64,000 nucleotides of DNA from a virus. Every line of letters begins with the position of its first letter. The stretch's first letter is position 1. The notes below the pieces were generated by a model, which ran no database searches, was not told where the DNA came from, and saw only the letters and a program-made list of their open reading frames with translations. The position numbers were made by a program, and so were the translations under genes. Where the stretch lies: positions 1 to 64,000 of the IMG/VR virus record IMGVR_UViG_3300023082_000009. The stretch is one strand, 5' to 3'. Shown here piece by piece: positions 1,080 to 45,667 of the stretch.

Positions 1080-2502
1080 TGCAAGCGCCGAAGGCAACCT
1101 CGTCACCGTAGACAAGGCCCAATTCGTAACGCTTGTGAAGAAGCCCGCTAACCAGCGCAGCTTTGGAATTCTTCGATCCGACAGAGAGGACGGCAACGTG
1201 AGCAAACCAGTAGCAGCAACCCGGCGCGTCTCGCGCACCAAGCGCAGCGATAGCAACCAGGATCTGGTTAGCCTCACGCTGCCCGGCACCCTGGACGAAG
1301 CTGCGGCCAAGGACGCCCTGGTCTCCTACGGCCTGAGCAACTTCACCGTGGCCCGCAGTGCTGACGACAGCGCCTGGGTGGCCTCCAACCCGAGTGCAAT
1401 CAATTGCACCGCAGAGCTGACCAGCGTGAACCTCGGCGAAGGTCTGGTTGCCCAGGTCAAGCGCACCGAAGCCACCGCCTCGACCGAGGGTAAGGGCCAG
1501 TTGACGGTCACTTCTCTCGAATTCTCGGGCGAAGCCTTTGCCGACGCGGGTGCCGTGAGCGAATGGTGCCAGCGAAATTCTGTTGACTTCGACGATAAAG
1601 CTCTTAACAATCCGTCTGGCAATCTTGTGTTGCAACGGGCGGAGATCCCGGAGGGTGAGGAAACTCGCCTGATGGAGCTGGAAGATGGCGTGACTGCAAC
1701 GATCATTCGTTCGCAGATCGGCGACATCCCTGACGGCTTCGTCGCGGTGATCAACGAGTATGCGTACTGCGGTTGGGGCTGGGGTCAGTTGGACTTCACC
1801 GCAGCTCTGATGGGTCGGCAGGTAACGGATGCACTGTACGACGGGATCTGGATTCTCGAAGATCTCCTCCGCAACATCCTGTTCTGGTCCGAGCTGACCG
1901 TGGACATCCGCATGGAGCTGACGACTCGGGCTTGCGCCCAGTTCGCCAACTACGCAAACGGGCTGCTCGACAGCCTCCCACGCCAACTTCTGATTTCCGT
2001 TGCAACAACTCAACGCAGTTCTAAGGAGAACGACATGAGCACCACGAAGCAACCCGCAGTAGAAGCCCAACGTACCGAACCAGCCGTGGCTCCTGCCGTG
2101 GTCGCTGTCGGTAGCCCTGAGTTCAACACCGCAGTGGCCGACGCTGTAGCCGCTGAGATCAAACGCCGCGAAGACGCCCAGGCTGAACAAGAAGCCGAAG
2201 AAGTCAAGCGCAAAGAACAGGAAGAGCTGGACAAGGCTTCCCTGGAAGAGCAAGCGAAGATTCGCCGCTCGGAGCTGGAAGAAGTTGTCGGCGCGGCCAC
2301 CAAGCCACTGCTGGAGCAGATCGAAGCACTGAAAGGCACCACCGTCGTGCGTAGCCAGGGCGGCGATCCAGAAGCCAACAAAGAAAACGTTAAGCGCGGT
2401 ACCGGCGACCTGTTCAAAGGCGTGTTCGGTATCACCCGTGCAGACCGCCGTGTCGACGCAGCCGCTGCTGCCGACGCTGACGAAGCTGCCGCAACCAAGT
2501 AA
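1054..2502 (+). CDS. Head scaffolding/maturation protein
   Basis: Lies between protease and capsid; FVTLVKKPAN motif; coiled-coil Ala/Glu-rich C-terminus; likely ATG at 1054. Confidence 0.65.
   Translation: MTSKRIQRSASAEGNLVTVDKAQFVTLVKKPANQRSFGILRSDREDGNVSKPVAATRRVSRTKRSDSNQDLVSLTLPGTLDEAAAKDALVSYGLSNFTVARSADDSAWVASNPSAINCTAELTSVNLGEGLVAQVKRTEATASTEGKGQLTVTSLEFSGEAFADAGAVSEWCQRNSVDFDDKALNNPSGNLVLQRAEIPEGEETRLMELEDGVTATIIRSQIGDIPDGFVAVINEYAYCGWGWGQLDFTAALMGRQVTDALYDGIWILEDLLRNILFWSELTVDIRMELTTRACAQFANYANGLLDSLPRQLLISVATTQRSSKENDMSTTKQPAVEAQRTEPAVAPAVVAVGSPEFNTAVADAVAAEIKRREDAQAEQEAEEVKRKEQEELDKASLEEQAKIRRSELEEVVGAATKPLLEQIEALKGTTVVRSQGGDPEANKENVKRGTGDLFKGVFGITRADRRVDAAAAADADEAAATK
1394..1409. 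repeat. Dispersed palindrome copy (in scaffold CDS)
   Basis: GTGCAATCAATTGCAC. Confidence 0.9.
2035..2502 (+). CDS. Probable in-frame internal-start scaffold product
   Basis: AAGGAGAACGACATG at 2023-2037 is identical to the RBS-start sequence of separate genes at 21819 and 61975. Confidence 0.5.
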   Translation: MSTTKQPAVEAQRTEPAVAPAVVAVGSPEFNTAVADAVAAEIKRREDAQAEQEAEEVKRKEQEELDKASLEEQAKIRRSELEEVVGAATKPLLEQIEALKGTTVVRSQGGDPEANKENVKRGTGDLFKGVFGITRADRRVDAAAAADADEAAATK

Positions 2503-2567
2503 CCAATCGGCGCGAGCCACACCGTTACGTTTCACCACTTTATGTCTAAGGACTTAGGAGCAAGAAC

Positions 2568-3593
2568 ATGAGCACCTCCCCAAGTGAAATGATCACTCGC
2601 GCTGACTTGGCCCTTGCGGATCTCGCCAACAACGGCGGTATCCTGCAACCCGAGCAGGCGAACCAGTTCATCGACTTCATCTACAACGAACCGACCATCC
2701 TGCGTCAGGCCCGTTTCATTCGCATGAACGCGCCACAACGCAACATCAACCGCATGGGCTTCGGCTCCCGCATCCTGCGTGCCGCTCGCCAAACTGGCTC
2801 GGCCCTGGACGCTGGTGGTAACGACCGCTACGTTCGCGCTGCGGACCGTGCCAAGCCGCAAGCAACTCAGATCCAGCTGAACACTTCCGAAGTGATCGCC
2901 GAAGTGCGCCTGCCGTACGAAGTGCTGGAAGACAACATCGAAGGCGAGAGCTTCGAGGCTCACGTCCTGCGCGCCATCGCTACCAAGGTTGCAGAAGACC
3001 TGGAAGAGCTGGCTCTCTGGGGCGACACCACCTCGGGCGACCCGTACCTCGCTCTGCAAGATGGCTGGATGAAGCGTGCCAACCTGCACGTCTTCGACAA
3101 CCTGGACACCGGCTTCAACGCCAACACCATCACCTCCGGCCTGCTGATGATGCCTTCCAAGTATCTCCGCAACATGCCGCAGATGAAGGCGTTCGTTGGC
3201 CTGCGCAACCAGCTCCGCTACGCTCAGTACCTGTCCGCTCGCGGCACGGCAATGGGCGACGCCGCACTCCAAGGCACCATCCCGCTGAAAGCGGCTGGTA
3301 TCACCGTGGAAGGCGCTGGCATGCTGGACGTGCACGGCGACGGCGACCAGGGCCTGATCACCATGCCGCAGAACCTGATCTGGGGTGTGCAGCGTGAGAT
3401 CACCATCGAAACCGACAAGGACATCCGTTCCCGCGAATACATCATCGTTGTGACTGCCCGTGTGGCGCTGCAAGTCGATGACCGTGACGCGCTGGTTCGC
3501 CTGGACAACATCGGTAACGTGGCTGACCCATCGCTGGCGGTGCGTGTGACCAACACCGCAGCTGCGCCGGTCAACACCAAAGAAGTGCCTTAA
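2568..3593 (+). CDS. Major capsid protein (HK97 fold)
   Basis: GGILQPEQANQFID and YEVLEDNIEG motifs; strong RBS; biased codon use; followed by a terminator. Confidence 0.9.
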   Translation: MSTSPSEMITRADLALADLANNGGILQPEQANQFIDFIYNEPTILRQARFIRMNAPQRNINRMGFGSRILRAARQTGSALDAGGNDRYVRAADRAKPQATQIQLNTSEVIAEVRLPYEVLEDNIEGESFEAHVLRAIATKVAEDLEELALWGDTTSGDPYLALQDGWMKRANLHVFDNLDTGFNANTITSGLLMMPSKYLRNMPQMKAFVGLRNQLRYAQYLSARGTAMGDAALQGTIPLKAAGITVEGAGMLDVHGDGDQGLITMPQNLIWGVQREITIETDKDIRSREYIIVVTARVALQVDDRDALVRLDNIGNVADPSLAVRVTNTAAAPVNTKEVP

Positions 3594-3606
3594 TCCGCAC
3601 TGAACG

Positions 3607-6920: not shown

Positions 6921-6936
6921 ATGCAATCAATTGCAC
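6921..6936. repeat. Dispersed palindrome copy (on a start codon)
   Basis: ATGCAATCAATTGCAC. Confidence 0.9.
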
Positions 6937-7235
6937 CGGACCAAGTTTTCATCGAAGTAACCGGCAACGGCGTAGAGATCGGTGGTAAGGCCCGCGAGAA
7001 GGGCTGGACCGGGTGGGTCAACAAGTCGTCGGCCCGCAAACTGATCGCTCACGAGAAGGCCAAGCCCGCCACTCCGAAAGCCAAGGAGCCCGCAAAGGCT
7101 AAGGCCGCAGCGGAGCCCGTTGAAGAGCAGCCAAAGGTAGTGGATACTGCGTCGGAACCTGACGTTGTGCCCTCGGAGAAAGTTGAGAAGGACACAGCGG
7201 CTACCAAACGTGTATCCCGGAATGGAAGAAAGTAA
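6921..7235 (+). CDS. Hypothetical protein
   Basis: GGAGG/AGGA RBS; start codon overlaps the dispersed palindrome (MQSIA). Confidence 0.65.
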   Translation: MQSIAPDQVFIEVTGNGVEIGGKAREKGWTGWVNKSSARKLIAHEKAKPATPKAKEPAKAKAAAEPVEEQPKVVDTASEPDVVPSEKVEKDTAATKRVSRNGRK

Positions 7236-8155: not shown

Positions 8156-11100
8156 ATGGCCGGTAACGAAAGCAACTTGGACGTAAACATCCGAGGGAAT
8201 GACGGGCTGACCCCCGCGCTCAATCAGATCGAATCCAAACTCATCCGTTTTGTTGGGGCCGTCTCTTCGGCCCTTACTGCCATCAAGGTAGTGGGTTTCC
8301 CTGTACAGGCTGTGCGCCAGTTTGAAGCGCAAATGGCCAACGTGCAGAAGACCACCAACTTCACGGATGGTCAGATCAAGTCCCTGAGCAACTCGCTCGT
8401 GGACATGTCCCGCAAGATCAACATCTCCGCAAACGACCTGGGTGCTATTGCTGCCGCCGCTGGCCAGCAAGGTCTCGGGCGCGAAGGTGTGGATGGTGTA
8501 AAGCAGTTCACCGAAACCGTGTCCCGTATGGCCGCTGTGTTGGACCTCACTGCCGATCAGGCGGGTGCCAACGTCGGTAAGATCGCGTCCGTCTTCAAGG
8601 TGAGCCTGCGGGACATCGAAGGCGTGTCGTCCGCGATCAACCAAGTGTCCAACAACTCGACAGCCACTGGTGAACAACTGCTCGATGTGGTCAAGCGGAT
8701 TGGTAACGCTGCGGGCGCCCTGAACTTGCAACAGACCATCGGCCTCGCCGCTACCGGTCTGGACCTTGGCCAATCGCCAGAAGTCGTGGGTACCTCCTAC
8801 GCCAAGATCTTCGCTGAGATGTTTGCGCGGGCGGACCAGTTCTCGAAGCTCCTGGGCATCAGTACCAAGGAGTGGATGCAGGTTCTCCAGCGCGACGGTA
8901 TTGAAGCCCTCAAGATGTACTACGCCGGGCTGCGTAAGCTGAGTGCCGAGGACCAGCAGAAGACGATCAAGGCGCTGTCGGGCGGCGGTCGTATCGGCGT
9001 GCTCGTGACCAAGGGTGTACAGGACACGGATAACGCCCTCCTGGACCGCAACCTGCGTAATGCTCAGGAAGGCCGGACCTCTGGCACCTCGGCACTGCGC
9101 GAACAGATGACGGTACTGAAAACCCTGGATGCTGAGATCTCCAAACTCAGTAACAGCTTCACTGCCCTGGGCATCAAGTCGGGTGAGGTCTTCGGCCCGA
9201 AACTCGCCGGGTACTTGGCTCAGCTGAACGCTGCCCTGGCCAACCCTGCCGTGATCGCTTTCGCCGAGAACGTGGGCAAGTCGTTCCTGTCCCTGTTCGA
9301 TACCGTTGCGTCCGGCATCAAGTGGATCGCCTCGCTGAATGTCAACTGGGAAAACTTCATCACCGTGGCCAAGGTCATGCTGGGTTTGAAGCTGGCTCAG
9401 TTCTTCCTCTCGATGGCTGGCAGCGTCCCACTCCTGGGTACGGCTCTGCGGGCGGTCGGTCTGCAAGCGATCACAGCCGGTGAGCAGCAGGCCGCAGGTT
9501 CGGCAGCAGCCAACAGCGCCCTGCAAAACCAGATCCTGAAAATCAAGGAGCTGATGGCCGCTCGTGCTACCGCAGCAGCCGCAGCCAAGGCGCAGACAGA
9601 AGCAGAGATCGCGCTCTCGAAAGCCCTGGTAGCCCAGAAGGCCGCAGAGACGAAGAACCTCCAGGCTCAGACGGCCCTGAAAGCACGCAATACTGTGATT
9701 GCCGGTGCATCCGCAGGCATTACCGCAGCCAAAGGTGGTGTGACCGCAGCGCAGGCAGCAGCCGCAGGTAATCTGGGCGCCACCATGCAGGCGCAGAACG
9801 CACGCATCGAGCAAGCCGAGCAGGCCCACCAAGCCCGCCGTACTGCCATCGTCGCCGAGGGTGAGAAAGCCCGTGGTCTGGCCCGTGCGCTGGGTGACAC
9901 TGCATCGGTCAAGTTGGCCAACCAGCTCCAGACCCAGGCCCTCGCCCAGGAGGACGCGTTCCAGGCCCGCTCCCTGACCAGCATCAACTCCTACTACGCC
10001 AAGCGTATCGCCACCGTGCGCGCTGCTGGCCTTGCCGAGGTAGGTGCTGCACAGGCCGGTCTGATGGCGTCCTTCACCCGGTTCGACTCTGTATCCCAGG
10101 GCCGTGGTTTCGCGGTGCTCACCACCAATGCCCGGATGGCGGCTATCGCGTTGCAGCAAGCTGACGCTGCCGTGGTCAAGGCCTCCGCAGATCTGGCCGT
10201 AGCCGACGCTGCTACTCGCAAGTCCGCGACCGGCTGGCTGGCCCTGCGCAATGCCGTGCAGCTGGCCGGTACTGCCTTCCAGGCGATCCTGGGCATCGCT
10301 GCTCGCGTGTTCCTCTGGGCCACCATCATCTACACCGTGCTCGACGCCTTCCACCTCCTGGACGGCATCGGCGGCATCGTGCAGAAGTTCACGGACAAGA
10401 TCGGCCTCACCTCGGAAGCCAGCCGCAAACTCGCACAGGCGGAGCGCGACCGGGCGGATGCTCACGATGCAGCTACTGCCAAGTTGCAGGAAGCGATCAA
10501 AGTCCTGGACACCTTCATCGACAAGCGTGACGGTCTAATCGACAAGGGCTTCGAGGCGCAGCTCAACGCTGGCCTGGGCGACGCTGACCCGAACGTGCAG
10601 AAGAAAGCGCTGGATGACCTCGTGTCCGCAGTAGAGGGCGCCTACGCCAAACTCGACTCCGCCAAGCAGGCAGCCGTGAACCTGCCCGGCATCGCAGATT
10701 CGACCAAAGCTGACCTGGACGCCGTGGTTGCAGAGATCGCCGCAGCCCAGACCCAGATCGAGGCACTGCAAACCAAGCAGCGCACGGGCGCAGGCTCGCG
10801 CTTCGGTGGCATCGCCGAGAACGGCGCCATCAAGGAACTGCAAAACAAGATCACCGAGCTGCAAGGCGTGCAAAAGCTGCTGGAGGCGTCGGTAGGTAAG
10901 ATCGGCCCGAACACTGCGGCAGCTACCGATACCGCCGTGGCCAAGACCCAGCAGAACCTGGAGAAGCTGTCTCAGTACGTGAGCAAGGCTTTCACCAATG
11001 AGTCTGCGGACGCGTTCATCAAGTTCGTGCCTGACTACATCAAGGCCGTGGAAGCGAAGGAGGCTGCCGACAAGGCACTGGCCAAGGCCCAGGAGGAGTA

Positions 11101-13303
11101 CACCCAGTCCCGTGGCACCGCCGAAGAGGAGGTCAAGAAGAAGGTAGTTGAAACGTCGCTGACCATGCTGGAGAGCGCCAACAACGTCGTGGCCCAGGTG
11201 CAGCAGAATCTCGGCGCATACCTGACCCAGATCAAGGCACAGGGCAACCTGGGCGACAACGTGATCGGCTCGCTGGACCGCCTGCCTGAGCTGCTGAATA
11301 ACTCGCTGCCTCAGCTGTCTGCGCTGCTGCGGATCATGCAGGGTATCAAAGGCACTGCCCAAGGCTTCACCGGGGCTCTGGCGCCTCCGAAGGTCACAGC
11401 TCCTACCGGCGATGGCTCCTTCAACCCCGGTGCCAACAGCGGCAAAGGCGAAGCCCGCGCACTGTCCAAGGCCCGCGTGGAGCTGGCCCGTGCCGAGCTG
11501 CAAGCGATTGCCAACCTGGAGAAGCAAGGCGTCACCGAGCAGACCGCTGCCCTGGAGTATGGCTACGGCAAAGGCCTGGAGACGATCCAACGCTACTACG
11601 ACAAGCGCAAGTCGCTGGCCCAGGAGAACCTGGACATCGAGACCCGCTTGAAGACCGACGAGATCTCCGCGCTCAACAAGGAGCTGGGCGAGGCCGAGGT
11701 AGAGAGTGCCCGCGTTCGGGTCAAAGCCCAGATCGTTAAAGCCGAGGGCGACCTCAAGCTGCTGTCTGCCCAGCGCAAAGCGTTGAACGACACCAACGAC
11801 CGCGAACGGGCGGACGCTGTGCGCGACTTCGCTGACAAGCTGATCAACCAGCAGAAGACCCTCGTTGAATACTTCGGCGCGGCAAACGACAGTGAGGCAT
11901 TCAAGGCTTCGCTCGACTCTGCTGCTGCGTCCTACCGTGACTTCGTGCAGAAGCTGCGCACCGAGGCAGAGGGCCAACCTGAGCTGCTGAAACTGGCGGA
12001 TGCTATCGAGACCCAGGGCCGCTTCGAGGCAACCGAGGCCGCGCTGCAATCAATTGCACGGGAAGCCACGCTGACCTCCGGCCAGTTCGACCTCGTGAAC
12101 CAGCGGATCGCCATGCTGCGGGATAACGGCACCATCACCGGGGTTCAAGCCTCGGGTGCGTACGCCGAGATCCGCAAGTCGATCATTGCCGTCAAGGAGG
12201 CGGAGCTGTCGCGGGCGGAGGCACAGCTGGCCCAGCTCTACGATGCCAACAAGGCCCTGGATGAGCAGTCCCTGAAATACAAGGAGCTGGCCCTGACCGT
12301 GGCCGGGTCCAAGCAATCCCTGGAAGTGTTGAAGACGCAAGCCAACGACACCGCCAAGGAAATCAACACCAGCGTCAACGGTGCGTTCAAGCAGCTGTTC
12401 GTGGACCTGTCCAACCCAGACGCAAGCCTGATGGACGCGGTGCGCACCTTCGGCTTGAAGATCCTTAGCTCGCTGACTGACGTTGCAGCAGGTGGTCTGG
12501 CCGATGCACTGACCCAAGGCATGGGCGGTATGGCTGGCGGCCTGGGCGGGATCTTCTCTTCCCTGTTCGGCGGCGACGGCGGCACCGTGGACACCAAGGG
12601 TACTGAGTTGAACCCTATGATCACCAAGGAGTGGGCTGCGGGTACTGGCCTGGGTCTGGGTGGCGACCTCGCCGGTAAAGCGGGTGACGCAGCCAAGGAC
12701 GCCCCGGCAGGCATCATCAGCCAGGGCCTGGACATGGTGACCAACGGGATCGGCAACCTGGGCAGCACCCTCATGGGCGGCCTGTCTTCCCTGGGCGGGG
12801 GTATCGCCAACGTGTTCGGCGGCGGCATCAGCCAACTGATGGGCTTCATCGGCCCGCTGTTCAGTTCCCTGATCGCAGCCATCTTCTCGTCGAGCGCGGC
12901 AAGCGGCACCTCCTCGGCTATCGGGGCGGCAGGTTCGGCAGCCATGATGGCACACACCGGGGGTATCGCAGGTCGGCTGACAATGAGCCGTAGCCATAGC
13001 GCGATGCCAGCAGGCTGGGCTGTGTACCACTCCGGTGGTATCGTAGGCCAGCGCCCTGATGAGGTCTCCGCTCTGCTGCGTAAAGGCGAGGAGGTCATCA
13101 CCCAGGACGACCCACGCCACCGCGACAACCTGAGCAAAGATCAGGAGAAAGGCGGCGGTACCCAGAACATCCGAGTGGTGCCCGTTCTCGACCCAGGCGT
13201 GGTCACCGATGCGATGTCTTCGTCCCAGGGCGAAACCGTGGTCGTGGCTCACATCAAGAAGAACGCGTCGGCTATCCGCCAAGTGCTGAACATCAAGCAA
13301 TAA
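8156..13303 (+). CDS. Tape measure protein
   Basis: 1715 aa, Ala-rich and helical; FEAQMANVQKTT N-terminal block; HTGG/HSGG...GEEVIT C-terminus. Confidence 0.95.
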   Translation: MAGNESNLDVNIRGNDGLTPALNQIESKLIRFVGAVSSALTAIKVVGFPVQAVRQFEAQMANVQKTTNFTDGQIKSLSNSLVDMSRKINISANDLGAIAAAAGQQGLGREGVDGVKQFTETVSRMAAVLDLTADQAGANVGKIASVFKVSLRDIEGVSSAINQVSNNSTATGEQLLDVVKRIGNAAGALNLQQTIGLAATGLDLGQSPEVVGTSYAKIFAEMFARADQFSKLLGISTKEWMQVLQRDGIEALKMYYAGLRKLSAEDQQKTIKALSGGGRIGVLVTKGVQDTDNALLDRNLRNAQEGRTSGTSALREQMTVLKTLDAEISKLSNSFTALGIKSGEVFGPKLAGYLAQLNAALANPAVIAFAENVGKSFLSLFDTVASGIKWIASLNVNWENFITVAKVMLGLKLAQFFLSMAGSVPLLGTALRAVGLQAITAGEQQAAGSAAANSALQNQILKIKELMAARATAAAAAKAQTEAEIALSKALVAQKAAETKNLQAQTALKARNTVIAGASAGITAAKGGVTAAQAAAAGNLGATMQAQNARIEQAEQAHQARRTAIVAEGEKARGLARALGDTASVKLANQLQTQALAQEDAFQARSLTSINSYYAKRIATVRAAGLAEVGAAQAGLMASFTRFDSVSQGRGFAVLTTNARMAAIALQQADAAVVKASADLAVADAATRKSATGWLALRNAVQLAGTAFQAILGIAARVFLWATIIYTVLDAFHLLDGIGGIVQKFTDKIGLTSEASRKLAQAERDRADAHDAATAKLQEAIKVLDTFIDKRDGLIDKGFEAQLNAGLGDADPNVQKKALDDLVSAVEGAYAKLDSAKQAAVNLPGIADSTKADLDAVVAEIAAAQTQIEALQTKQRTGAGSRFGGIAENGAIKELQNKITELQGVQKLLEASVGKIGPNTAAATDTAVAKTQQNLEKLSQYVSKAFTNESADAFIKFVPDYIKAVEAKEAADKALAKAQEEYTQSRGTAEEEVKKKVVETSLTMLESANNVVAQVQQNLGAYLTQIKAQGNLGDNVIGSLDRLPELLNNSLPQLSALLRIMQGIKGTAQGFTGALAPPKVTAPTGDGSFNPGANSGKGEARALSKARVELARAELQAIANLEKQGVTEQTAALEYGYGKGLETIQRYYDKRKSLAQENLDIETRLKTDEISALNKELGEAEVESARVRVKAQIVKAEGDLKLLSAQRKALNDTNDRERADAVRDFADKLINQQKTLVEYFGAANDSEAFKASLDSAAASYRDFVQKLRTEAEGQPELLKLADAIETQGRFEATEAALQSIAREATLTSGQFDLVNQRIAMLRDNGTITGVQASGAYAEIRKSIIAVKEAELSRAEAQLAQLYDANKALDEQSLKYKELALTVAGSKQSLEVLKTQANDTAKEINTSVNGAFKQLFVDLSNPDASLMDAVRTFGLKILSSLTDVAAGGLADALTQGMGGMAGGLGGIFSSLFGGDGGTVDTKGTELNPMITKEWAAGTGLGLGGDLAGKAGDAAKDAPAGIISQGLDMVTNGIGNLGSTLMGGLSSLGGGIANVFGGGISQLMGFIGPLFSSLIAAIFSSSAASGTSSAIGAAGSAAMMAHTGGIAGRLTMSRSHSAMPAGWAVYHSGGIVGQRPDEVSALLRKGEEVITQDDPRHRDNLSKDQEKGGGTQNIRVVPVLDPGVVTDAMSSSQGETVVVAHIKKNASAIRQVLNIKQ
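12044..12059. repeat. Dispersed palindrome copy (in tape measure CDS)
   Basis: CTGCAATCAATTGCAC. Confidence 0.9.
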
Positions 13304-28714: not shown

Positions 28715-28730
28715 GTGCAATTGATTGCAC
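28715..28730. repeat. Dispersed palindrome copy (just downstream of promoter, reverse)
   Basis: GTGCAATTGATTGCAC. Confidence 0.9.
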
Positions 28731-32121: not shown

Positions 32122-32137
32122 GTGCAATTGATTGCAC
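32122..32137. repeat. Dispersed palindrome copy (abuts RBS, reverse)
   Basis: GTGCAATTGATTGCAC. Confidence 0.9.
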
Positions 32138-32150: not shown

Positions 32151-32594
32151 GTGAGCCACACCAGCGCAGTAAAAAGCATTGCCATCACCAGCGTTGAAGC
32201 GCTGCGTGAGGCCGTCAAGGAACTGAACGCCAACGGCGTGAAGTGCAGCTTGGTCGAGAACTCCACCCCTCGCGCCTACTACAGCAACCAGACCGGCCTG
32301 GGCAAAGCCGACTTCGTACTCAAGCTGGACAACAGCCGTTACGACGTTGGCTTCTACAAGTCCGAGAACGGCGGCTACGAAGTGCGCACCGACTTCTGGG
32401 GCCAGGACGTGAAGAACCAGCTCGGCGCCACCGCGTCAGGCCCTGGCAAGACTGAGCAAGCCCAGCTGGGCAAACTCTTCCAGGCGTACGGCATCCACGC
32501 CGCCATGATGGAAGCCCGCCGCAAGGGCCTGATGGCTACCCGCCAGAAAGGCAAGGACGGCATCGAGCAAGTAGTCGTCTCGGGCTACCGTTAA
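32151..32594 (+). CDS. DUF1257 (Ycf35-like) protein
   Basis: MSHTSAVK start, YDVGF...YEVRTDFW, LFQAYG pattern; near the Ycf46-like ATPase. Confidence 0.7.
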   Translation: MSHTSAVKSIAITSVEALREAVKELNANGVKCSLVENSTPRAYYSNQTGLGKADFVLKLDNSRYDVGFYKSENGGYEVRTDFWGQDVKNQLGATASGPGKTEQAQLGKLFQAYGIHAAMMEARRKGLMATRQKGKDGIEQVVVSGYR

Positions 32595-35511: not shown

Positions 35512-36109
35512 GTCAACCGAACGTTTCATGGCTGCCGGGGTTCCTCGGTCCTGCTGGGAGCTGAGCTGCCGCGACCGTGGTCAGGTGAACATCACCGAGT
35601 GGGCCAAGGAGCAGGCCCGCCGCCGTAAAGAGCGGGAGGCCCTTGTCTCCGCCTACGTCCTGCACCCCGTGACCAAGCGAGGGGCCGAACGCCGGGCGGA
35701 GGATTTCACCTATTGCCAGGAGACGGTCGACCTGCTCGCGAGGCAGGCGGTGCTTGAAGGATTGCCTGTGAAAGTAGTTCCGTTCCACGGGCTGGTTCAT
35801 GCTCTTCAACACCCCTCGGCCTATATCTCCCAGGACACGGACCCAGAAGCCCGCGCCAGGACCACGATATTTGACTTACTTGGTCAAGGAGTTATTGTCG
35901 TACCTCTCCTGCCCAACCCGCTCGACGCTGAATGCGAGCCATATCAGTATCGGGTCGCGCTCGACTTCCTGCTCACCCACCTCTACGAGGGCGGTGCCCT
36001 GGTCATCGGCGGTTCGGAGCAGCTAAGCAAGCGACTTCAAAGTGGCTACCCCGATTCCCTGGAACGTCTACTCCTGGGGAACTCGGAATACTTCGGGACA
36101 GGCTCATGA
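35504..36109 (+). CDS. DnaC-like helicase loader, apparently degenerate
   Basis: AGVPRSCW start and position between initiator and helicase; no Walker A motif visible. Confidence 0.45.
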   Translation: MSKSTERFMAAGVPRSCWELSCRDRGQVNITEWAKEQARRRKEREALVSAYVLHPVTKRGAERRAEDFTYCQETVDLLARQAVLEGLPVKVVPFHGLVHALQHPSAYISQDTDPEARARTTIFDLLGQGVIVVPLLPNPLDAECEPYQYRVALDFLLTHLYEGGALVIGGSEQLSKRLQSGYPDSLERLLLGNSEYFGTGS

Positions 36110-37380
36110 GCACAGGATTGAAATTCATCGCTTCGGCGATCCAGCACCAGGCGGGGAACGCGATCATCCGCGTCGACCCCGACCTGCTGATCACGGAGCA
36201 AGAGGTAGCGGTCTACGAGTTCTGCCGTGACTACTACCGCAGCTACCGCGAAGTGCCCACGCCCGCGATGGTCCAGGAGAACCTGAACATCCGCATGCCT
36301 CGGGTAGAAGGGCCGGTGGGTTTCTACGAAGACGAACTCCAGGATCGCTTCAACTTCGAGGTGGTCCGGGAGGGCTTCACCGATCTGCGCTCGATGGTCC
36401 AGGAAGGCAAGCCCGGTCCGATGATCGAGACCATGGAGCAGACCATCCGGCGCATCCGTCGGACCCGTCGCGGCCAGGGCGGGATGATCAACATCGGCGA
36501 AGCCATGACCTTGGCCATCGACCGCCTGCAAGCCCTCCAGGGGAGCGGCGGGATGTCAGGGGTACCTACCCCTTGGCCGACCCTCAATCGCATCACCAGC
36601 GGCTACCAGAACGCCGACCTGATCACCTGGGTGGGCCGGACCTCCCTCGGTAAGACGATGATGCTCCTGGCCCAAGCCGAGTTCGCCTATGACAACGGCT
36701 ACTCGGTTCTTTTCGTTACGACGGAGATGGCCTCGGAAGCAATCGCACGACGCTGGATGGCCATGAAGTGGGGCTTCGATCCCGAGGCCCTCAAGTCGGC
36801 CCAGGTCTCCACTTACACCCTGCGCAAGATGCGTGCGCTGAACGTCGAACTCCTCGGGCGGGAGCGCTTCCGTTTGCTCAGCGCCGGGATGAAGGGTGAC
36901 CTTGCCATGGTCGAGGCCGCCATCGAAGAGATGCAGCCCGACATCCTGTTCCTGGACGGTGTGTACCTGATGCGCCCGAGCGGCAAGCAAGTACCCCGCA
37001 GCAAGACCGAGCAGGTCTCTGCCGTGTTCGACGAACTCAAGCAACGCAACATCGACACCAATATCCCGTTTGTCGTCAATACCCAGTTCAACCGGTCATC
37101 CGGGAAGGGCGGTAAAGAGGGCAGCCTGGAAAGCATCGGCCTCTCCGACACGATTGGCCAACACAGCTCCATCGTAATTGCGATCAAGCCTGGACCCACG
37201 GACAACTGGCACCACTCCCGAGAGCTGGACTTGCTCAAGGGGCGGGAAGGTGAACAGGGCAAGGTGAACATCAATTACCGCTTCAAACCTACGGATCTCA
37301 GCGAGATGTCGGATGAGCAACTGGAGGAATGCAGCAATGGGGCGCCCGCTATCGGAAGCGATGGCGAGATCTACACTTGA
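36106..37380 (+). CDS. Replicative DnaB-like helicase
   Basis: GVPTPWPTLN, Walker A GRTSLGKT, TTEM, FLDGVYLM, TQFNR, KGREG. Confidence 0.92.
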   Translation: MSTGLKFIASAIQHQAGNAIIRVDPDLLITEQEVAVYEFCRDYYRSYREVPTPAMVQENLNIRMPRVEGPVGFYEDELQDRFNFEVVREGFTDLRSMVQEGKPGPMIETMEQTIRRIRRTRRGQGGMINIGEAMTLAIDRLQALQGSGGMSGVPTPWPTLNRITSGYQNADLITWVGRTSLGKTMMLLAQAEFAYDNGYSVLFVTTEMASEAIARRWMAMKWGFDPEALKSAQVSTYTLRKMRALNVELLGRERFRLLSAGMKGDLAMVEAAIEEMQPDILFLDGVYLMRPSGKQVPRSKTEQVSAVFDELKQRNIDTNIPFVVNTQFNRSSGKGGKEGSLESIGLSDTIGQHSSIVIAIKPGPTDNWHHSRELDLLKGREGEQGKVNINYRFKPTDLSEMSDEQLEECSNGAPAIGSDGEIYT

Positions 37381-37390: not shown

Positions 37391-40270
37391 ATGACATGCA
37401 ACCGCGACCTTTGTGAGGGGTGCCCGATTGACGGGCTCCATGAGCCAGTCGAGCCGTTGGGCTACGAGGACGCTCCCTACCTCATCGTGACAGACACACC
37501 GAGCAAGGCAGGTGCCAAAGCTGGCCGCCTCCTTGCACCTTCCCACAAGGCAATGCTGTTCAAGCACATGGGCAACGAGCAGTTCACCGAGGACCAGTTC
37601 CAGTACCACCCTCTCTGCCTCTGCCCGTTCGACCAGGACCAGTACAAGAACACCGAGAAGAAGAAGATCTTCAAACACTGCCGGGCGCACCTGGAGGACT
37701 TCATCGACGAGATCCGTCCCGAGGTGATCATCCCCCTGGGCAGCGAGGCCGCGTGCCAAGTCTTCAACAAGTCGGTGAAGATCACCCAGGTGAAAGGTCT
37801 GGGTGCTCAGTCCGATGAGTTCGGCGTGCCGATCTTCCCGCTCCAGAACCCAGGCCTCGCCACTTTCCGTCCTGAGAACGAACCAGTCCTCGCGGCGGAC
37901 ATTGCGTCGTTCGGGCGGTTGGTGGATGCAGGCTTCGACATCGCCAAAGCTGACGACTTCATGACGGGCGATTACACCGAGGTGACTGACCTCCAGTTCC
38001 TCATCGACGGCAAGCACGAACTGCTCTCGTACGATACCGAGACCACCGGCCTGCGCTGGTACCAGAAGGGCGTCAACGTCCGCACCTACGACGAGGCCAA
38101 GCACAAAGGCAAGGACTGGTTCCGCCCACGGTTCCAGATCCTTACGATGCAGTTCACCGTGAAGACCGGCGAGGCGTTTATCCTGGTCTGGGACCACCCA
38201 GAACGCCCGATCCCCGAGGAGCGCAAGCCTGTATTGCGTAACCAGCTTCGGCAGCTGTTGTGCGCACCAGAAACCACGGTAATCGGACAGCGCATCAAGT
38301 TCGATAACGTGGCTCTTTGGATGACCGAGGGTATCCGTTTCCCTATCGGCGGGTGCACCCAGATGCTGTGCGCGATCCACGATGAAAACCTGCCCGAGAA
38401 GAACCTGGACATCCTCACCAAGATCCATGCGCCGGAGATGGCCGGGTACGCCGACCGCTTCAACGCCAGCGTGGACAAGTCGAGGATGTGGGAAGTCCCG
38501 ATCAAGACCATGATCCCGTACGGCGGTGGCGATACCGATGCAGCGTTCCGCGTCTACAACGAGCTGGAGCGCCTCGTGCAGGAAGACGAAAAGAACTGGA
38601 ACCACTACTGCCGCGTCTCGATCCCAGGCCTCAACGCCCTGGCCGCAATGGAGACCCGAGGCATGCTCGTGGATCTCGAAGTGGCCCTGCCAGAGTTCCA
38701 GGCCTACCTGGAGGAGGAGGTGCTGCGCCAGCGCAACAGCCTGCTGGCCCAGGTGCACCGCGACATCAAGCGCGACCACATCGAAGCCAAGAAGGGCGAC
38801 GTGGAAGAGGCCCTCAAGTTCTCCCGTCAAGAGTTCCTCAAGGACATCCTGTTCAACCATCCGAAGGGCTTCAAACTCAAGCCGAAGGTGTGGACCAAGA
38901 CGACAGAGAAACTGCCGGACCACATGAAGGAGCCGAGCACCAGCTCGAAGGACCACCTGCCGTTCTTCTTCGAGAGCTGCCCCTTCACGTTCGAGCTGGC
39001 CGAGTACGTCAAAGACTCCACCATGCTGCGCAACAACGTCCAGGGCTTCCAGGACAAGTTCGTGGTAGATGGATGGTGCCGACCGACCTACTTCCTGGAC
39101 GTGGCGGTGACCCGTCGTACGGCCTCGCGTGACCCCAACGGCCAGAACTTTCCGAAGCGTGGCAAGAAGGCCAAGATGTACCAGCGTTCGTTCATCGCGC
39201 CCAAGGGCAAAGTGATCATCGCGTGCGACTTATCGCAGGCCGAGCTGCGCATCGCGGGCGACATGGCCAACGACAAAGAGATCATCAGGATCTACAACGA
39301 AAACGGCGATATTCACATCACCACGGCTGCTCTCGCGATGGGCATCAGCGAAGAGAAGTTCGCCCTGCTCCCGGCCAAGGAACGTAAGGAGTGGCGGCAG
39401 AAGGCCAAGGCGATCAACTTCGGTTTCATCTACGGGATGTCGTGGAAGAAGTTCATGGCTTACGCCAAGACCCAGTACGGGGTGGAGTTCACCGAGACCG
39501 AAGCCAAGAACATCCGGTCGAACTACTTCAAGAAGTACAAGGGCATTGCAGCGTGGCACGAAGTGGTCAAGAACTTCGTCAAGCAACACGGCTTCGTCCG
39601 CTCCTACAGCGGCCTCGTGCGCCACCTGCCAAGCGTTTACTCCGAGGAGGAGTGGATTCAGGCGGAGGCCATGCGCCAAGGCATCAACAGCCCGGTGCAA
39701 GAGTTCGGCTCCACCCTGGGCGTGATCAGTCTCGGGCGGATGAACGAAGAGATGGACCCGGTGTACCTGGAAGTGTTTGGCTTCATCCACGACGCCATCT
39801 ACGCCTACGTCGACGAGAAGTATGTCGACTGGGGCCTCAAGACACTCAAGGGCTACATGCAGTCCAACGACCTGGAAGATCTGTTTGGCCGGAAGATGAA
39901 GGTGCCGATCATCGCCGACGCGGCGTTTGGCTGGAACCAGGGCGAGCTGTACGAGCTGGGCGACTACGGTGGCTTCGACCTCGACACCCCGTACGACTTC
40001 ACCCAGATCCAGGACAAGGACGGCAATCAGCTGGTCGATCTGCCACCGCAGGAGATCCCACCAAATGGCGGTTTCCTCACCCGCTCCCCGTACACCGAGG
40101 TCACCGACCTGGAAGACGAAAGCGTTGTGGTCGCAGTGCGCCGTCGCCACCTGGGCGTAGCACCGCCACGCCAAGCACAGGTCAAGCCACGCCGGGTGGC
40201 CGTCCGGGAGGAGGAACCGGAGCAAGTCAAGGCGGTCAAGCGGACGTACCGCAGCCGCGAATCAGTGTAG
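37391..40270 (+). CDS. DNA polymerase family A with N-terminal UDG-like domain and 3'-5' exonuclease
   Basis: YDTETTGL (Exo I), DLSQAELRI (motif A), RQKAKAINFGFIYG (motif B), IHDAIY (motif C). Confidence 0.95.
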   Translation: MTCNRDLCEGCPIDGLHEPVEPLGYEDAPYLIVTDTPSKAGAKAGRLLAPSHKAMLFKHMGNEQFTEDQFQYHPLCLCPFDQDQYKNTEKKKIFKHCRAHLEDFIDEIRPEVIIPLGSEAACQVFNKSVKITQVKGLGAQSDEFGVPIFPLQNPGLATFRPENEPVLAADIASFGRLVDAGFDIAKADDFMTGDYTEVTDLQFLIDGKHELLSYDTETTGLRWYQKGVNVRTYDEAKHKGKDWFRPRFQILTMQFTVKTGEAFILVWDHPERPIPEERKPVLRNQLRQLLCAPETTVIGQRIKFDNVALWMTEGIRFPIGGCTQMLCAIHDENLPEKNLDILTKIHAPEMAGYADRFNASVDKSRMWEVPIKTMIPYGGGDTDAAFRVYNELERLVQEDEKNWNHYCRVSIPGLNALAAMETRGMLVDLEVALPEFQAYLEEEVLRQRNSLLAQVHRDIKRDHIEAKKGDVEEALKFSRQEFLKDILFNHPKGFKLKPKVWTKTTEKLPDHMKEPSTSSKDHLPFFFESCPFTFELAEYVKDSTMLRNNVQGFQDKFVVDGWCRPTYFLDVAVTRRTASRDPNGQNFPKRGKKAKMYQRSFIAPKGKVIIACDLSQAELRIAGDMANDKEIIRIYNENGDIHITTAALAMGISEEKFALLPAKERKEWRQKAKAINFGFIYGMSWKKFMAYAKTQYGVEFTETEAKNIRSNYFKKYKGIAAWHEVVKNFVKQHGFVRSYSGLVRHLPSVYSEEEWIQAEAMRQGINSPVQEFGSTLGVISLGRMNEEMDPVYLEVFGFIHDAIYAYVDEKYVDWGLKTLKGYMQSNDLEDLFGRKMKVPIIADAAFGWNQGELYELGDYGGFDLDTPYDFTQIQDKDGNQLVDLPPQEIPPNGGFLTRSPYTEVTDLEDESVVVAVRRRHLGVAPPRQAQVKPRRVAVREEEPEQVKAVKRTYRSRESV

Positions 40271-40325: not shown

Positions 40326-40781
40326 ATGTCCGAAGAACGCATCATCCGCCGCACACGCACCGTAGCCCGAGGGGTACTCCGCCAGGAGCCTACTCACCTG
40401 GGCGACATCAACCAACGCATGCAATTGATTGCAGAAGCCGAGGCCGAGATCCGCAAGACCCTGGAGGCCATCGAGACAGCCAAGGCCGAAGTGGAAGACC
40501 TCATGAAGGCCGCAAAGCTGACCACCCACGAGCACCTGGGGCTGATCGCGGAGTGGGTCGAGACCAAGACCAACTCGTCTACCGAAGTCAGCGTAGAAGC
40601 GGCTCGCAAGGCGATCAGGAACGACAAGGACTTCTTCTCCGTCCTCAAGGTCCAGATGGGTCCGCTGGGCAAGGTGCTGTCCGAGAACGAGATCAAGGCC
40701 ATCGCCAAGGTCACGCCCGGTCAGGTCACCGGCAAGAAGTTCCAGATCATGCAACCGAAAAAGAAGGCAGGCAAAAAATGA
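40326..40781 (+). CDS. Hypothetical protein
   Basis: AGGAG RBS; coiled coil; IIRRTR N-terminus. Confidence 0.7.
   Translation: MSEERIIRRTRTVARGVLRQEPTHLGDINQRMQLIAEAEAEIRKTLEAIETAKAEVEDLMKAAKLTTHEHLGLIAEWVETKTNSSTEVSVEAARKAIRNDKDFFSVLKVQMGPLGKVLSENEIKAIAKVTPGQVTGKKFQIMQPKKKAGKK
40419..40434. repeat. Dispersed palindrome copy (in CDS, reverse)
   Basis: ATGCAATTGATTGCAG. Confidence 0.9.
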
Positions 40782-41335
40782 ACAAGACCCTGGAGCTGGC
40801 CGATCACCTCGAACGCACCCCTGCCGACTCCGGGGTGCTTGTTGTCCACGATGCCTTGCGTATGGCTGCCGCCGAGCTGCGCCGCCTGGACGCGCTGATC
40901 AACACACCCGAGACCGAGAACTTCGTCGAAGGCATCCGCCTGGAAGCCGCACACCAGGAGCAGCGCTGGGGCGCGTCGCACGATGACGGTAAGGGTCCGC
41001 AGGACTGGTACTGGCTCGTCGGCCACCTCGCAGGCAAGGCCCTCATGTCCTTCGTTACGGGCGACATCGAGAAGGCCAAACACCACGTCATCACAACAGC
41101 TGCGGCGCTGGCCAACTGGCACCGCAAACTCTGTGGGAGCGGCACCATGCGTCCAGGCATCGCACCACCAGAGCCGGAGAAGACCGAGGAGTACCAGCAG
41201 GGCTTCAAGGCTTACCAGGAAGGCCGCACCCCTTGCGCCAACCCCTACCTGTCCACCAACCAGTTCTGGGCCAGCGGCTCTTGGGCTCGCGGCTTCCGCG
41301 CCGCCGCTCTCAAAGACACAAAGGAGCATGGCTAA
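40778..41335 (+). CDS. Hypothetical protein, MazG-like helical core plus Rmf-like C-terminus
   Basis: EAAHQEQRWG...W core; YQQGFKAY...NPY...WARGF tail. Confidence 0.45.
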   Translation: MNKTLELADHLERTPADSGVLVVHDALRMAAAELRRLDALINTPETENFVEGIRLEAAHQEQRWGASHDDGKGPQDWYWLVGHLAGKALMSFVTGDIEKAKHHVITTAAALANWHRKLCGSGTMRPGIAPPEPEKTEEYQQGFKAYQEGRTPCANPYLSTNQFWASGSWARGFRAAALKDTKEHG

Positions 41336-42333
41336 TGGAGCGGGCGCACATCAAGGAGGTTCTGCGTGACGTGTTCGGGCGGAACTTCGCGATGAAGGAT
41401 CTCGGCGAGTGGGTGAGTATCAAGTGCCCGCTGGCCAAGTGGACCCACGAGAAGGGCTCCGACTCCACGGCGTCTGCCGGGGTCAAGGTCGCGCCCGACG
41501 GCACCAGTATCTACAACTGCTTCACCTGCAAGCACCCCAAGCCGTTCCACGCCATGCTCAAGGAGTACGCGGAGTATTCCGGGGACAACCTGGACGGCTT
41601 GATCGAGGAGCTGGAGGAGGGTGAGTTCCTCGGCCCGTCCAGGCCCCGCACGTACGACGAGATCCGGGCGGAGATGGCCCAGGAAACCGAGATGGCTATG
41701 CCCCTGGACGAAGGCCTGTACATGGACCTCTACCAGCCAGCAGGCAAGCACCGGTACCTGCGTGATCGCGGCATCGACCTCGCCACCTCCCAGAAGCTGG
41801 AGCTGCGGTTTGATCCGAAGGACAGCGAAGGCGAGGCCCGCATCATGTTCCCGGTGCGCGGCCCCGATGGCCTGCTCTACGGGTTCAGCGGGCGGGCGAT
41901 CAACCCAGGTGCCCGGCTCAAGGTCCGCGACTACCACGGCCTCAAGAAGTCCGAGATGGTCCTGGGCTCGCACCTCGTAGGGCCGACCGACAAGATCTGC
42001 ATCGTCGAGGGGCTCTTCGACTACGCCAACGCGCATCAGTGTGGCTATACAGGGTGTGCCGTAATGCACTCAACTATGACCGATCACCAAGCCGACATCT
42101 TCCGGGATCTCGGGCGGCCAGCCTACCTCTTCTACGATGACGACAAGGCCGGTGAAGATGGCAACGTGATTGCCGAACGGAAACTGAAAGGCCACATCCC
42201 TCTACTCGGAGTGACCTACCCAGACGTGAAGATTGAAGACGATTCACCGGAAGGATGGCACTGGCTCAAAGACCCCGGAGAGATGATTCCCGAGGACTTT
42301 GCCCAGATGATCCGGGACGCCTATCTTCTTTGA
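41335..42333 (+). CDS. DNA primase (zinc finger plus TOPRIM)
   Basis: CPLAKWTH...CFTC, GFSGR, IVEGLFD, YDDDKAG, KDPGE. Confidence 0.9.
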   Translation: MERAHIKEVLRDVFGRNFAMKDLGEWVSIKCPLAKWTHEKGSDSTASAGVKVAPDGTSIYNCFTCKHPKPFHAMLKEYAEYSGDNLDGLIEELEEGEFLGPSRPRTYDEIRAEMAQETEMAMPLDEGLYMDLYQPAGKHRYLRDRGIDLATSQKLELRFDPKDSEGEARIMFPVRGPDGLLYGFSGRAINPGARLKVRDYHGLKKSEMVLGSHLVGPTDKICIVEGLFDYANAHQCGYTGCAVMHSTMTDHQADIFRDLGRPAYLFYDDDKAGEDGNVIAERKLKGHIPLLGVTYPDVKIEDDSPEGWHWLKDPGEMIPEDFAQMIRDAYLL

Positions 42334-43975: not shown

Positions 43976-43978
43976 ACC

Positions 43979-45667
43979 ATGCGCCCGGCTATCCTTGCGG
44001 GCGCTATGAAGCTCCCTCTCGATAGTATCGACGCCCCTGCCGTAAAGAAGCTGACCACCTACAAGCATCGCCCCCTGGGCCTTGCCGACGGTGAGCCAGA
44101 TCTGGAGGTCGAGGCTTGGTACTACGAGGGGGATTTTCTTTGCGTGCCCCGCCAGCTCGGGATCACGCTGTGCAATCAGTTGCACATCGAGATCGAAGAT
44201 CAGACCAGTGATGGGTTCCCTGCCGTCTTCCCTTGCATCCCCGATCCCAGGGTGTACCAGGAGCCGCAGATCGACCAGATCGTGGAAACCTTCGACAGCT
44301 TTTACGACTTCATCTTCCGTGCCCATACCGGGTGGGGTAAGACCGTGGGCTCCCTCATTGCCGCAGCGCGGATGGGGCGGACCACCATTGTCATCGTTGA
44401 CCAGGACAACCTCCGGGAGCAGTGGGAGGAGTGCCTGATCAAGTTGTTCGGCTTCAAGCCCGAGGAGATCGGGATCATCCAGGGGCCGGAGAAGAAGTGG
44501 CGCTGGAAGGGACTGGCCGTAACCATCGCTATGGTGCAGACCCTCAGCCAGAAGGGCGTGTCGGAGGAGATGGCGGAATACTACGGTACTGCCATCGTCG
44601 ACGAGGTACACACCGCTGGCGCCCCGACGTTCTCCGCCTCCCTGGTCATGTTCAGCGCCGGTCGACGCCTGGGCGTGTCTGCTACTCCTGGTCGCCGTGA
44701 TGGCCTCCAGCGCGCCCTGGACCACAACCTGGGCAAGATCCGCGTGGCAGCCGACAAGGAGCACGACCGCTCCGCCGTCTACGTGATCCGTCACGAGACC
44801 GTCTACAGCTTCTACGGCAACGTGTCCAAGATGACCGGGCGGATCTTCTCCGAGGTCGAGGAGGATGGCCCGCGTAACATGACGATCATGGAGGCAGCTC
44901 TCTGGCTGTACGAGTCGGGGCGGGACGTGCTGATCCTCTCGGACCGTATCGAGCAGCTGCGGGAGCTGATGAGCATCGGCTATTACCTGGGGGTGCCCGA
45001 GGAGGAGATGGGCCTGTATACTGGCCACGACCCCCAGTGGATCTTCGGCAAAGACCCGAAGCCTACCAAGAGACCTGATGACCTGCACCGATGGAAAGAC
45101 GACCGAGGCCGCTTCGTGTACGCGGAGTACAGCGCGGTCGGTTTGCAGCTCGTGAGGAAACGAATTCCTAAAGCCACACTCAAACAGGTCAAAGAAAGAT
45201 GCACGATGATGTTTGCTACATACGGGATGTGCTCAAAGGGCTTCGACAAACCCAGCCTCACGGGCGGCATCGACGCTACACCTAGAAGCACGGCAGAACA
45301 GATTCACGGTCGGATTCTCCGAGGGGAAGACGGCAGGCCAATACCGATCTGGGTAACCATCGCCGACGTGAACAGCTACCGACTGATGTATTCGTTCGGT
45401 AGTCGGGTGAAGGAGTATCTCAAAAGCAATGGTGTCCTCTTTGAGTGGCACCCAGACGGGAGTGTTGAACCATGCGACGTGACAGACCTAAAGGCAGAGA
45501 TCTACGACCGGGTAACCGAGCTGAAATCTATGCAGATCCAAACCAACAGCGACGGGCTAAATATTCTGCTGACGGCCAAGGACGCGCAGAGAAACAAGCG
45601 GACAGCCGAGCGCGCTATAATGCAAAAGTTCCAAAGACCGCCAGCCCGCCTGCCCCGCCATCAGTGA
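43979..45667 (+). CDS. Superfamily 2 DNA helicase
   Basis: AHTGWGKT, DEVH, SATP, QIHGRILR. Confidence 0.9.
   Translation: MRPAILAGAMKLPLDSIDAPAVKKLTTYKHRPLGLADGEPDLEVEAWYYEGDFLCVPRQLGITLCNQLHIEIEDQTSDGFPAVFPCIPDPRVYQEPQIDQIVETFDSFYDFIFRAHTGWGKTVGSLIAAARMGRTTIVIVDQDNLREQWEECLIKLFGFKPEEIGIIQGPEKKWRWKGLAVTIAMVQTLSQKGVSEEMAEYYGTAIVDEVHTAGAPTFSASLVMFSAGRRLGVSATPGRRDGLQRALDHNLGKIRVAADKEHDRSAVYVIRHETVYSFYGNVSKMTGRIFSEVEEDGPRNMTIMEAALWLYESGRDVLILSDRIEQLRELMSIGYYLGVPEEEMGLYTGHDPQWIFGKDPKPTKRPDDLHRWKDDRGRFVYAEYSAVGLQLVRKRIPKATLKQVKERCTMMFATYGMCSKGFDKPSLTGGIDATPRSTAEQIHGRILRGEDGRPIPIWVTIADVNSYRLMYSFGSRVKEYLKSNGVLFEWHPDGSVEPCDVTDLKAEIYDRVTELKSMQIQTNSDGLNILLTAKDAQRNKRTAERAIMQKFQRPPARLPRHQ
44170..44185. 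repeat. Dispersed palindrome copy (in helicase CDS)
   Basis: GTGCAATCAGTTGCAC. Confidence 0.85.

Follow-up and report, generated by a model that had tools for sequence, protein, structure and literature searches.

The published arrays closest to the one described here are the operators of the plasmid protein KorB and the dyad repeats of Cluster O mycobacteriophages. The KorB operator OB of the IncP plasmid RK2 is a palindrome that is read by an HTH domain of the ParB family and present in many copies throughout the replicon, some of them 4-10 bp upstream of promoters and others far away (PMC11790492). Cluster O phages, which are not obviously temperate and encode a protein with a ParB-like domain, carry more than 30 copies of the 17-bp dyad TGTTCGG-NNN-CCGAACA, about a third of them in coding sequence; the positions are mostly common to relatives, the function is unknown, and a dimeric binder has been predicted (PMC4351075, PMC6439249). 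In Cluster A phages, two to three dozen short repressor sites, the stoperators, are found across the genome, beyond promoters (PMC4351075). Here we describe a dispersed palindrome, TGCAAT-YR-ATTGCA, in a 64,000-nucleotide stretch of viral DNA (the window), the first 64 kb of IMG/VR virus record IMGVR_UViG_3300023082_000009. The complete record, G000, measures 94,879 bp at 60.6% GC, and nearly all of its about 140 genes lie on the + strand. On balance, we read the palindromes as putative docking sites on double-stranded DNA for a phage-encoded dimeric protein, evenly spaced over the chromosome, with the product of the gene at 49570-51063 as the likeliest candidate binder. Our literature search, which included the 14-mers and the names Samunavirus, L338C and RcZahn, found no description of a TGCAA-N4-TTGCA array.

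The palindrome is mostly followed by a C. Its 12-mer core is found 13 times in the window, where 0.05 copies would be expected, and none of 100 shuffles reached this number; the whole of G000 holds 22 exact 14-mers and 27 copies within one mismatch. Scanning viral sequences with the 14-mer retrieved contigs of 93-101 kb that each hold 9-50 copies; they range from 39% to 62% in GC content, have no alignable DNA in common with G000 and share with it about 15-25 core genes at 25-45% amino acid identity. The array is also present in the cultured Rhodobacter phage RcZahn (101 kb, 9 copies of the same word as in G000), Rhizobium phage L338C (47 copies of TGCAAC-NN-GTTGCA) and Pseudomonas Samunavirus phage PA_L9 (30 copies of TGCAA-RCGY-TTGCA), and Vibrio phage SIO-2 has 3 copies; the arms TGCAA/TTGCA are constant across these lineages and the inner bases vary by lineage. 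In all 256 copies from nine genomes, the spacer is 2 bp long and the centre is a pyrimidine-purine step (CA 162, TG 84, CG 8, TA 2). Where single mismatches occur, they are at the edges and the centre, with GCAA/TTGC fixed. No conserved flanks were found beyond 16-17 bp, neither around intergenic nor around coding copies. The invariant spacer, the fixed GCAA/TTGC and the lack of co-variation between the arms favour a site that would be read as duplex DNA by a dimer. The copies in the window, including near-copies and one decayed copy, are the following:

1395-1408: TGCAATCAATTGCA, coding, in the open reading frame (ORF) 1054-2502, read as S-AINC-T
6922-6935: overlaps the start of ORF 6921-7235, ATG-CAA-TCA-ATT-GCA (MQSIA), with GGAGG 9 nt upstream
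11499-11512: TGCAAGCGATTGCC, decayed copy in the tape measure gene
12045-12058: coding, in the tape measure gene 8156-13303, read as L-QSIA-R
14287-14300: TGCAATTGATTGCA, coding, in the tail protein gene 13314-15866, read as V-QLIA-P
21792-21805: intergenic, 25 nt ahead of gene 21831-22559
25508-25521: intergenic, 20 nt ahead of gene 25542-26144
26993-27006: intergenic, preceded by a hairpin and followed by the ribosome site of gene 27020-27697
28716-28729: intergenic, 54 nt ahead of the AAA ATPase gene 28784-30517
32123-32136: intergenic, abutting the ribosome site of gene 32151-32594
34806-34819: CGCAATCAATTGCA, coding, one edge mismatch, in ORF 34156-35511, read as G-AINC-T
40420-40433: coding, in ORF 40326-40781, read as M-QLIA-E
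44171-44184: TGCAATCAGTTGCA, coding near-copy that reads CNQLH, in the SF2 helicase gene 43979-45667
49447-49460: intergenic, 109 nt ahead of gene 49570-51063 and 18 bp upstream of TTGAAT-17-TACTAT
54226-54239: intergenic, 11 nt ahead of gene 54251-54961
60485-60498: TGCAATCAACTGCA, intergenic near-copy ahead of gene 60511-61068
62586-62599: TGCAACTAATTGCA, intergenic near-copy, past a terminator-like hairpin and ahead of gene 62612-62881

Seven coding copies had been listed in the initial annotation, and their positions, frames and peptides are all correct, with 34806 (CGCAAT...) and 44171 (...CAGTTGCA) each one base off the 14-mer. The same annotation had placed the copies in essential genes and in different frames: all three frames are indeed used, whereas 'essential' was inferred and the names scaffold and initiator were guesses from gene position. 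Its statement that the coding copies use codons uncommon in this genome agrees with the codon shares among synonyms, which range from 3% of Ser codons for TCA to 24% of Gln codons for CAA, with ATT at 11% of Ile and AAT at 12% of Asn; among the other site codons, TTG accounts for 10% of Leu and GCA for 17% of Ala. When synonymous codons were shuffled over all genes, 15-16 of the 22 sites were left, i.e. just the non-coding copies; since no coding copy survives the shuffling, their presence is not accounted for by the protein sequences. Placement within genes is common in the clade, with 129 of 235 copies in seven genomes lying in coding sequence.

Megablast against cultured phages gave no match, the tail protein, searched against viral contigs, matched just one relative, at 48%, besides a fragment of 100% identity, and a metagenome scan gave no match either. 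As there were no close relatives for a classical synonymous-rate test, we used deep conservation instead. In nine distant genomes of the clade, at 25-45% amino acid identity, coding copies are co-located in alignment columns of orthologues in 27 pairs, whereas 0.53 pairs are expected and none of 2000 permutations gave more than 5. At these shared columns the 14 bp are identical and the flanking codons are different; a flip of the centre between CA and TG alters the encoded residue (QSIA/QLIA, AINC/AIDC), and orthologues without the site carry other residues. G011, the closest relative (33-79% amino acid identity), keeps four of the five testable sites exactly (1395, 6922, 14287 and 90096), with third codon positions just 36-51% identical to those of G000 where sites are kept, at an amino acid identity of 33-63%. 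The site at 14287 stands at the same codon in G011, at 49% amino acid identity, and the start-overlapping arrangement of 6922 recurs both in G011 (MQSIAP) and in PA_L9 at 29894. PA_L9 furthermore holds the motif variant TGCAATCGCTTGCA at the position of 1395, and its site 55679 occupies the homologous position of 34806.

Other positions have changed. The tape measure site 12045 has no counterpart at the homologous place in G011 or PA_L9 and is, judging from these alignments, a new, lineage-specific gain, while 546 nt upstream of it the decayed copy at 11499, which aligns exactly with the PA_L9 site 34444 (TGCAAGCGCTTGCA), is the relic of an older site. The helicase near-copy at 44171 belongs to an insertion of 7 residues, and the column at which G001, G003 and G006 keep their site comes 18 columns further downstream. 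At the place homologous to 40420, PA_L9 has no site, the nearest being 506 nt off. Sites are thus either held in place or replaced close by, and the orthologue alignment that the initial annotation had proposed as a check for constraint or turnover speaks in favour of its reading. Its central claim, that selection acts on the DNA site itself, is supported by the shuffling, by the retention in G011 and by the shared alignment columns.

The sites are also evenly spaced. For all copies within one mismatch, the coefficient of variation (CV) of the spacing in G000 is 0.59, compared to 0.95 for random placement (P = 0.002), and within the window it falls to 0.43 (P = 0.0004). The ten non-coding copies of the window alone have a CV of 0.89 and leave a largest gap of 17.3 kb; adding the six deep coding copies, which stand 344-1578 nt from the next start, lowers these values to 0.43 and 7.5 kb, a result that six random positions match in 0.06% of cases (P = 0.0006). 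As these six copies close the two long gaps, the coding copies fill tightly packed stretches of long genes that have no intergenic room. In the relatives, the CV is 0.48-0.68 (0.60 in L338C, 0.57 in PA_L9), and the evenness held also against a null that models the preference for gene starts. The gap filling by deep coding copies fits a spacing or loading role.

Roughly half of the sites are found in the 100 nt ahead of a gene start, where 15% of random positions fall, and 18% are no more than 30 nt from one (5% of random positions); for about 40%, the closest start is over 200 nt away. A good -35/-10 pair begins 3-22 nt downstream of 35 of the 256 sites (random 1.1%), mostly at 7-8 nt. The initial annotation had argued for a spacing, loading or roadblock role, far from promoters; the deep coding copies that fill intergenic gaps fit spacing or loading, but in relatives 14% of sites stand just upstream of a sigma70-type -35 element. 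Because these sites are only a few bp from the -35, promoter-linked control is also part of the picture. A different arrangement, in which a promoter would end just upstream and place the site at +1, had looked plausible by eye in G000 and was rejected, as -10-like hexamers 3-9 nt upstream of the sites were unenriched in seven of seven genomes. Between 20001 and 40000, consensus sigma70-type promoters are scarce, with one found against 3.2 expected from shuffles despite about 25 genes.

Two neighbouring genes are of particular relevance for the identity of the binder:

49570-51063, + strand: candidate binder, a core gene of the clade; PHROG 17202, of unknown function; homologues include RcZahn gp66 and L338C gp074
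51132-51893, + strand: protein with a ParB N-terminal (ParB/Srx) domain, a possible partner

A site stands 74-115 nt ahead of the 49570-51063 gene in G000, G001, G002, G006, G008, PA_L9, L338C and RcZahn; in RcZahn this is one of just 9 sites in 101 kb. The gene has its own sigma70-type promoter in G000, TTGAAT-17-TACTAT (within 49461-49569), and seven other lineages show the same layout with a near-consensus TTGACA. The distance from the site to the -35 is 6-8 bp in G001, G002, G006, G008, L338C and RcZahn, and 17-18 bp in G000 and PA_L9. To judge from this layout, the site carries what is usually the signature of a regulator acting on its own promoter, and its placement resembles that of the promoter-proximal OB sites of KorB (PMC11790492). 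In the predicted structure of the protein, residues ~260-400 have a fold like the helix-turn-helix (HTH) DNA-binding domain of ParB/Spo0J/KorB: domains of ParB, Spo0J, KorB and VirB head the list of a fold search, with Z-scores of 7.9 for Spo0J (1vz0; 102 residues aligned, root-mean-square deviation 3.2), 7.4 for ParB-parS (6s6h), 5.7 for KorB (1r71) and 4.2 for VirB (3vwb). Residues 123-178 appear SAP-like, and the helix RKAxYLxxIY is conserved. From the fold and the position of the upstream site we infer that 49570-51063 binds the palindromes. The adjacent protein 51132-51893 matches Noc in a profile comparison (3e-16), and its residues 36-137 fold like ParB N domains (Z 11-13); its model contains no confident HTH. 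Next to it, 52449-53951 joins a ParB N domain to a SAM methyltransferase fold in one protein, so that two ParB N-domain proteins adjoin the terminase genes.

Several observations weigh against this assignment. The fold match is middling, as the tool describes Z-scores like these (5.7-7.9) as common among helical domains, and just residues 130-170 and 270-400 are modelled with confidence. Foldseek with the 497-residue model gave no significant match, Pfam no family, and the profile of the protein no useful match to PDB sequences, as was the case for families 10 (45998-46387) and 11 (47546-47920). A ParB N (CTPase) domain was not detected in 49570-51063, so that a sliding-clamp mechanism is unsupported for this protein alone. 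The family of ParB N-domain proteins is poorly conserved (15-23% identity). The putative recognition helix is nearly unchanged across phages with T, R or C at position 6 of the site, the only difference being a Y to Q exchange in PA_L9; candidate and site therefore do not clearly co-vary. Co-variation of RKAxYLxxIY with the motif was accordingly dropped as a marker of the binder, the helix being alike in phages with T, with C or with few sites and PA_L9 supplying one data point at best. The motif accompanies all core genes of the clade, so that co-occurrence singles out no binder either. Finally, some genomes show a strong preference for one orientation of the centre, which a symmetric dimer does not predict: relative to transcription, the CA:TG ratio is 11:11 in G000, 29:1 in G003, 21:1 in G007 and 5:18 in G008. 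Frame 0 admits only the CA centre, because TG would make a TGA stop; this constraint does not account for the one-sided orientation.

In the mechanism that we favour, the putative ParB/KorB-type HTH protein 49570-51063 would dock on the array, perhaps together with the separate ParB N-domain protein 51132-51893. Sites would be placed in short intergenic gaps where space allows, whereas in two long packed blocks, the structural and the replication genes, they would be written into the genes by means of rare codons, leaving no stretch site-free, and selection would hold them or substitute new ones nearby. The outcome of binding could be a coating or marking of the whole genome, or a KorB-like long-range control of transcription. 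A broader generalisation, which we put forward tentatively and consider rather doubtful as yet, is a 'split ParB' throughout a clade of siphophages with 80-110 kb genomes (Samunavirus, Rhizobium L338C-like, RcZahn-like and Vibrio SIO-2-like phages, and many uncultured ones): the HTH protein would dock on a TGCAA-N4-TTGCA lattice and recruit the ParB N-domain protein, in some cases fused to a methyltransferase, and the two would jointly mark, coat or modify the chromosome, with selection on the spacing of the lattice strong enough to have shaped codons of structural and replication genes throughout the existence of the clade.

Genes of the window are annotated as follows:

450-1079: protease gene
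1054-2502: ORF between the protease and major capsid genes; the label 'scaffold' is a guess from position
2568-3593: major capsid gene
8156-13303: tape measure gene
13314-15866: tail protein gene
28784-30517: AAA ATPase gene
34156-35511: ORF without family match; the label 'initiator' is a guess from position
36106-37380: DnaB gene
37391-40270: PolA with a uracil-DNA-glycosylase-like domain
41335-42333: primase gene
43979-45667: SF2 helicase gene
46399-47538: RecA-like gene
51132-53951: ParB-related genes
55760-57667: large terminase gene

Some genes deserve a comment of their own. The family A DNA polymerase at 37391-40270 combines an N-terminal uracil-DNA-glycosylase-like domain (PF03167, 1.3e-7) with a 3'-5' exonuclease domain. 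The last 40 residues of ORF 40778-41335 match ribosome modulation factor (PF04957, E 4e-6, 27.1 bits at a cut-off of 27.9), an odd find in a phage replication module. Three consecutive nuclease genes at 47546-49439 encode a small PD-(D/E)XK resolvase-like protein, a Cas4-like protein with four invariant cysteines and a RuvC-like protein, in an order kept from Vibrio SIO-2 to Rhizobium L338C and RcZahn. Beyond the window, G000 carries at 70051-70064 the variant TGCAAAACCTTGCA, 24 nt upstream of an exact copy at 70089, the two forming a tandem pair in one intergenic region, and at 72226-75806 five exact copies in 3.6 kb among small genes with long intergenic gaps. L338C is likewise dense at 70.6-77.3 kb, with 10 copies in 6.6 kb, and such a stretch may represent an early or regulatory region.

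Among the alternatives to docking by 49570-51063, the one that fares best keeps the lattice and assigns it to another phage protein, be it the ParB N-domain protein 51132-51893, the ParB-methyltransferase fusion 52449-53951 or the ORF 34156-35511; we regard it as unlikely. ParB_N proteins are present in 9 of 10 records, with a family profile that matches Noc and ParB at 1e-11 to 3e-16, but the N-domain model lacks a confident DNA-binding domain and its family has just 8 invariant columns. The ORF 34156-35511 and its positional counterparts (family 32) contain an internal site in G000, PA_L9, G001, G002, G003 and G006, and the counterpart in RcZahn, gp51, is annotated as an HTH protein; 34156-35511 itself, however, yielded no fold or family evidence.

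That the palindrome serves as a hairpin of RNA, or of single-stranded DNA, in long co-directional transcripts, where it would act as a processing, stability or translation signal, seems improbable to us. With all genes on one strand, every copy would be transcribed, the 16-mer folds at a modest -5.2 kcal/mol, and both the excess of sites within 30 nt of a start (18% against 5%) and the biased centre orientation of some genomes would suit such a role. However, the stem letters never co-vary over a clade spanning 39-62% GC, and compensatory double changes account for one of 47 two-mismatch variants, which is the chance rate (3%). The complementarity extends into the 2-base centre, where a hairpin could not use it, and G003 and G008 favour opposite loop sequences. 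More than half of the copies lie within genes, and some 40% have no start within 200 nt.

We give little credence to a transcription machinery, directed by the phage, that would use the palindrome itself as its promoter or start signal. The palindrome is the sole recurring motif found, half of its copies precede a gene start by at most 100 nt, compared to 15% of random positions, and consensus sigma70 promoters are scarce at 20-40 kb (1 against 3.2 expected). A palindrome has no direction, though, and this genome is transcribed one way; there are no conserved bases past 16-17 bp and no enrichment of an upstream -10-like hexamer, and such promoters as are seen consist of an ordinary -35/-10 pair that follows the site. 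In five complete genomes we found no match to sigma70 region 2 (PF04542) and none to T7-type RNA polymerase (PF00940), the latter in a search in which the control was also unmatched and unusual polymerases were not covered.

Scarcely more credible is a set of sites cut, nicked or entered by the nucleases or replication proteins at 47546-47920, 47924-48925 and 48927-49439, whether as T5-like nicks or as many starts of recombination-dependent replication. The resolvase-like, Cas4-like and RuvC-like genes are core to the clade and adjoin the candidate binder, and even spacing would suit priming. Yet a palindrome would be cut on both strands, fragmenting the genome, no sequence link connects the nucleases to the site, and the promoter-adjacent class of sites is left unexplained. 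A favoured peptide, or chance, as the source of the coding copies can practically be dismissed, for only the recurrence of AINC, QSIA and QLIA speaks for it, whereas one DNA word yields three unrelated peptides in three frames, synonymous shuffling abolishes all coding copies, and residues vary (S/L, N/D) while the DNA remains in the motif.

With docking by a dimeric phage protein as the preferred reading, the array is of interest beyond this genome. A constraint at the DNA level takes precedence over the choice of codons, and even over that of residues, in structural and replication genes of phages, and it has stayed at the same codons in proteins that have diverged to 25-45% identity. Dispersed phage palindromes that have long been unexplained, such as those of Cluster O, are here connected with a specific candidate protein and with sites laid out much as those of KorB, and the presence of the array in the cultured phages RcZahn (Rhodobacter capsulatus) and L338C (Rhizobium leguminosarum), both of which have non-pathogenic hosts, makes the function of the lattice directly testable. 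For annotation, such sites can mislead start-codon calls as well as analyses of codon usage and selection.

How does the array compare with known systems? Resemblances to sites of the sigma54, IHF and LacI/PurR types were dropped, as spacing or key bases misfit or could not be tested. Stoperators, the sites of L5 gp71, lack symmetry, follow the direction of transcription and occur in temperate phages that have an immunity repressor; the G000 site, in contrast, is palindromic, with a centre mixed 11:11 and an orientation that varies among relatives, and no integrase or repressor was noted among the annotated G000 proteins. Noc sites are scattered in dozens over the chromosome. Like parS, they are 14-16 bp palindromes read by a dimer with a ParB-type HTH (7nfu, 6y93, 6s6h, 1vz0), as would be the case here. 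In Noc and ParB, however, the N, HTH and dimerisation domains are joined in one chain that controls segregation or division of the cell, whereas the N and HTH-like domains considered here are on separate phage proteins.

The likeness to KorB and OB extends to a dispersed palindrome of 14-16 bp, of which 35 of 256 copies closely precede a -35, by a few bp, while over 40% stand deep in genes, and to a site at the promoter of the candidate binder's own gene; by its model, with middling scores, the candidate may also resemble the HTH of the ParB family. The likeness ends with the number and setting of the sites, 22-50 evenly spaced copies on a virulent-type phage of ~95 kb compared to about a dozen on RK2, and with the CTPase N domain, which the phage candidate lacks and which sits on separate proteins; neither a KorA-like partner nor ParA was identified. 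As in this clade, Cluster O genomes carry a single invariant palindrome, variable at its centre, dozens of times, with a sizeable coding share and positions common to relatives. The two arrays differ in sequence, in the spacer (3 bp in Cluster O, 2 bp here) and in hosts. Furthermore, Cluster O genomes are close relatives, whereas the array described here spans Pseudomonas, Rhizobium and Rhodobacter phages as well as uncultured ones at 39-62% GC, with positions kept at 25-45% amino acid identity, and its even spacing and the filling of gaps by coding copies have been measured.

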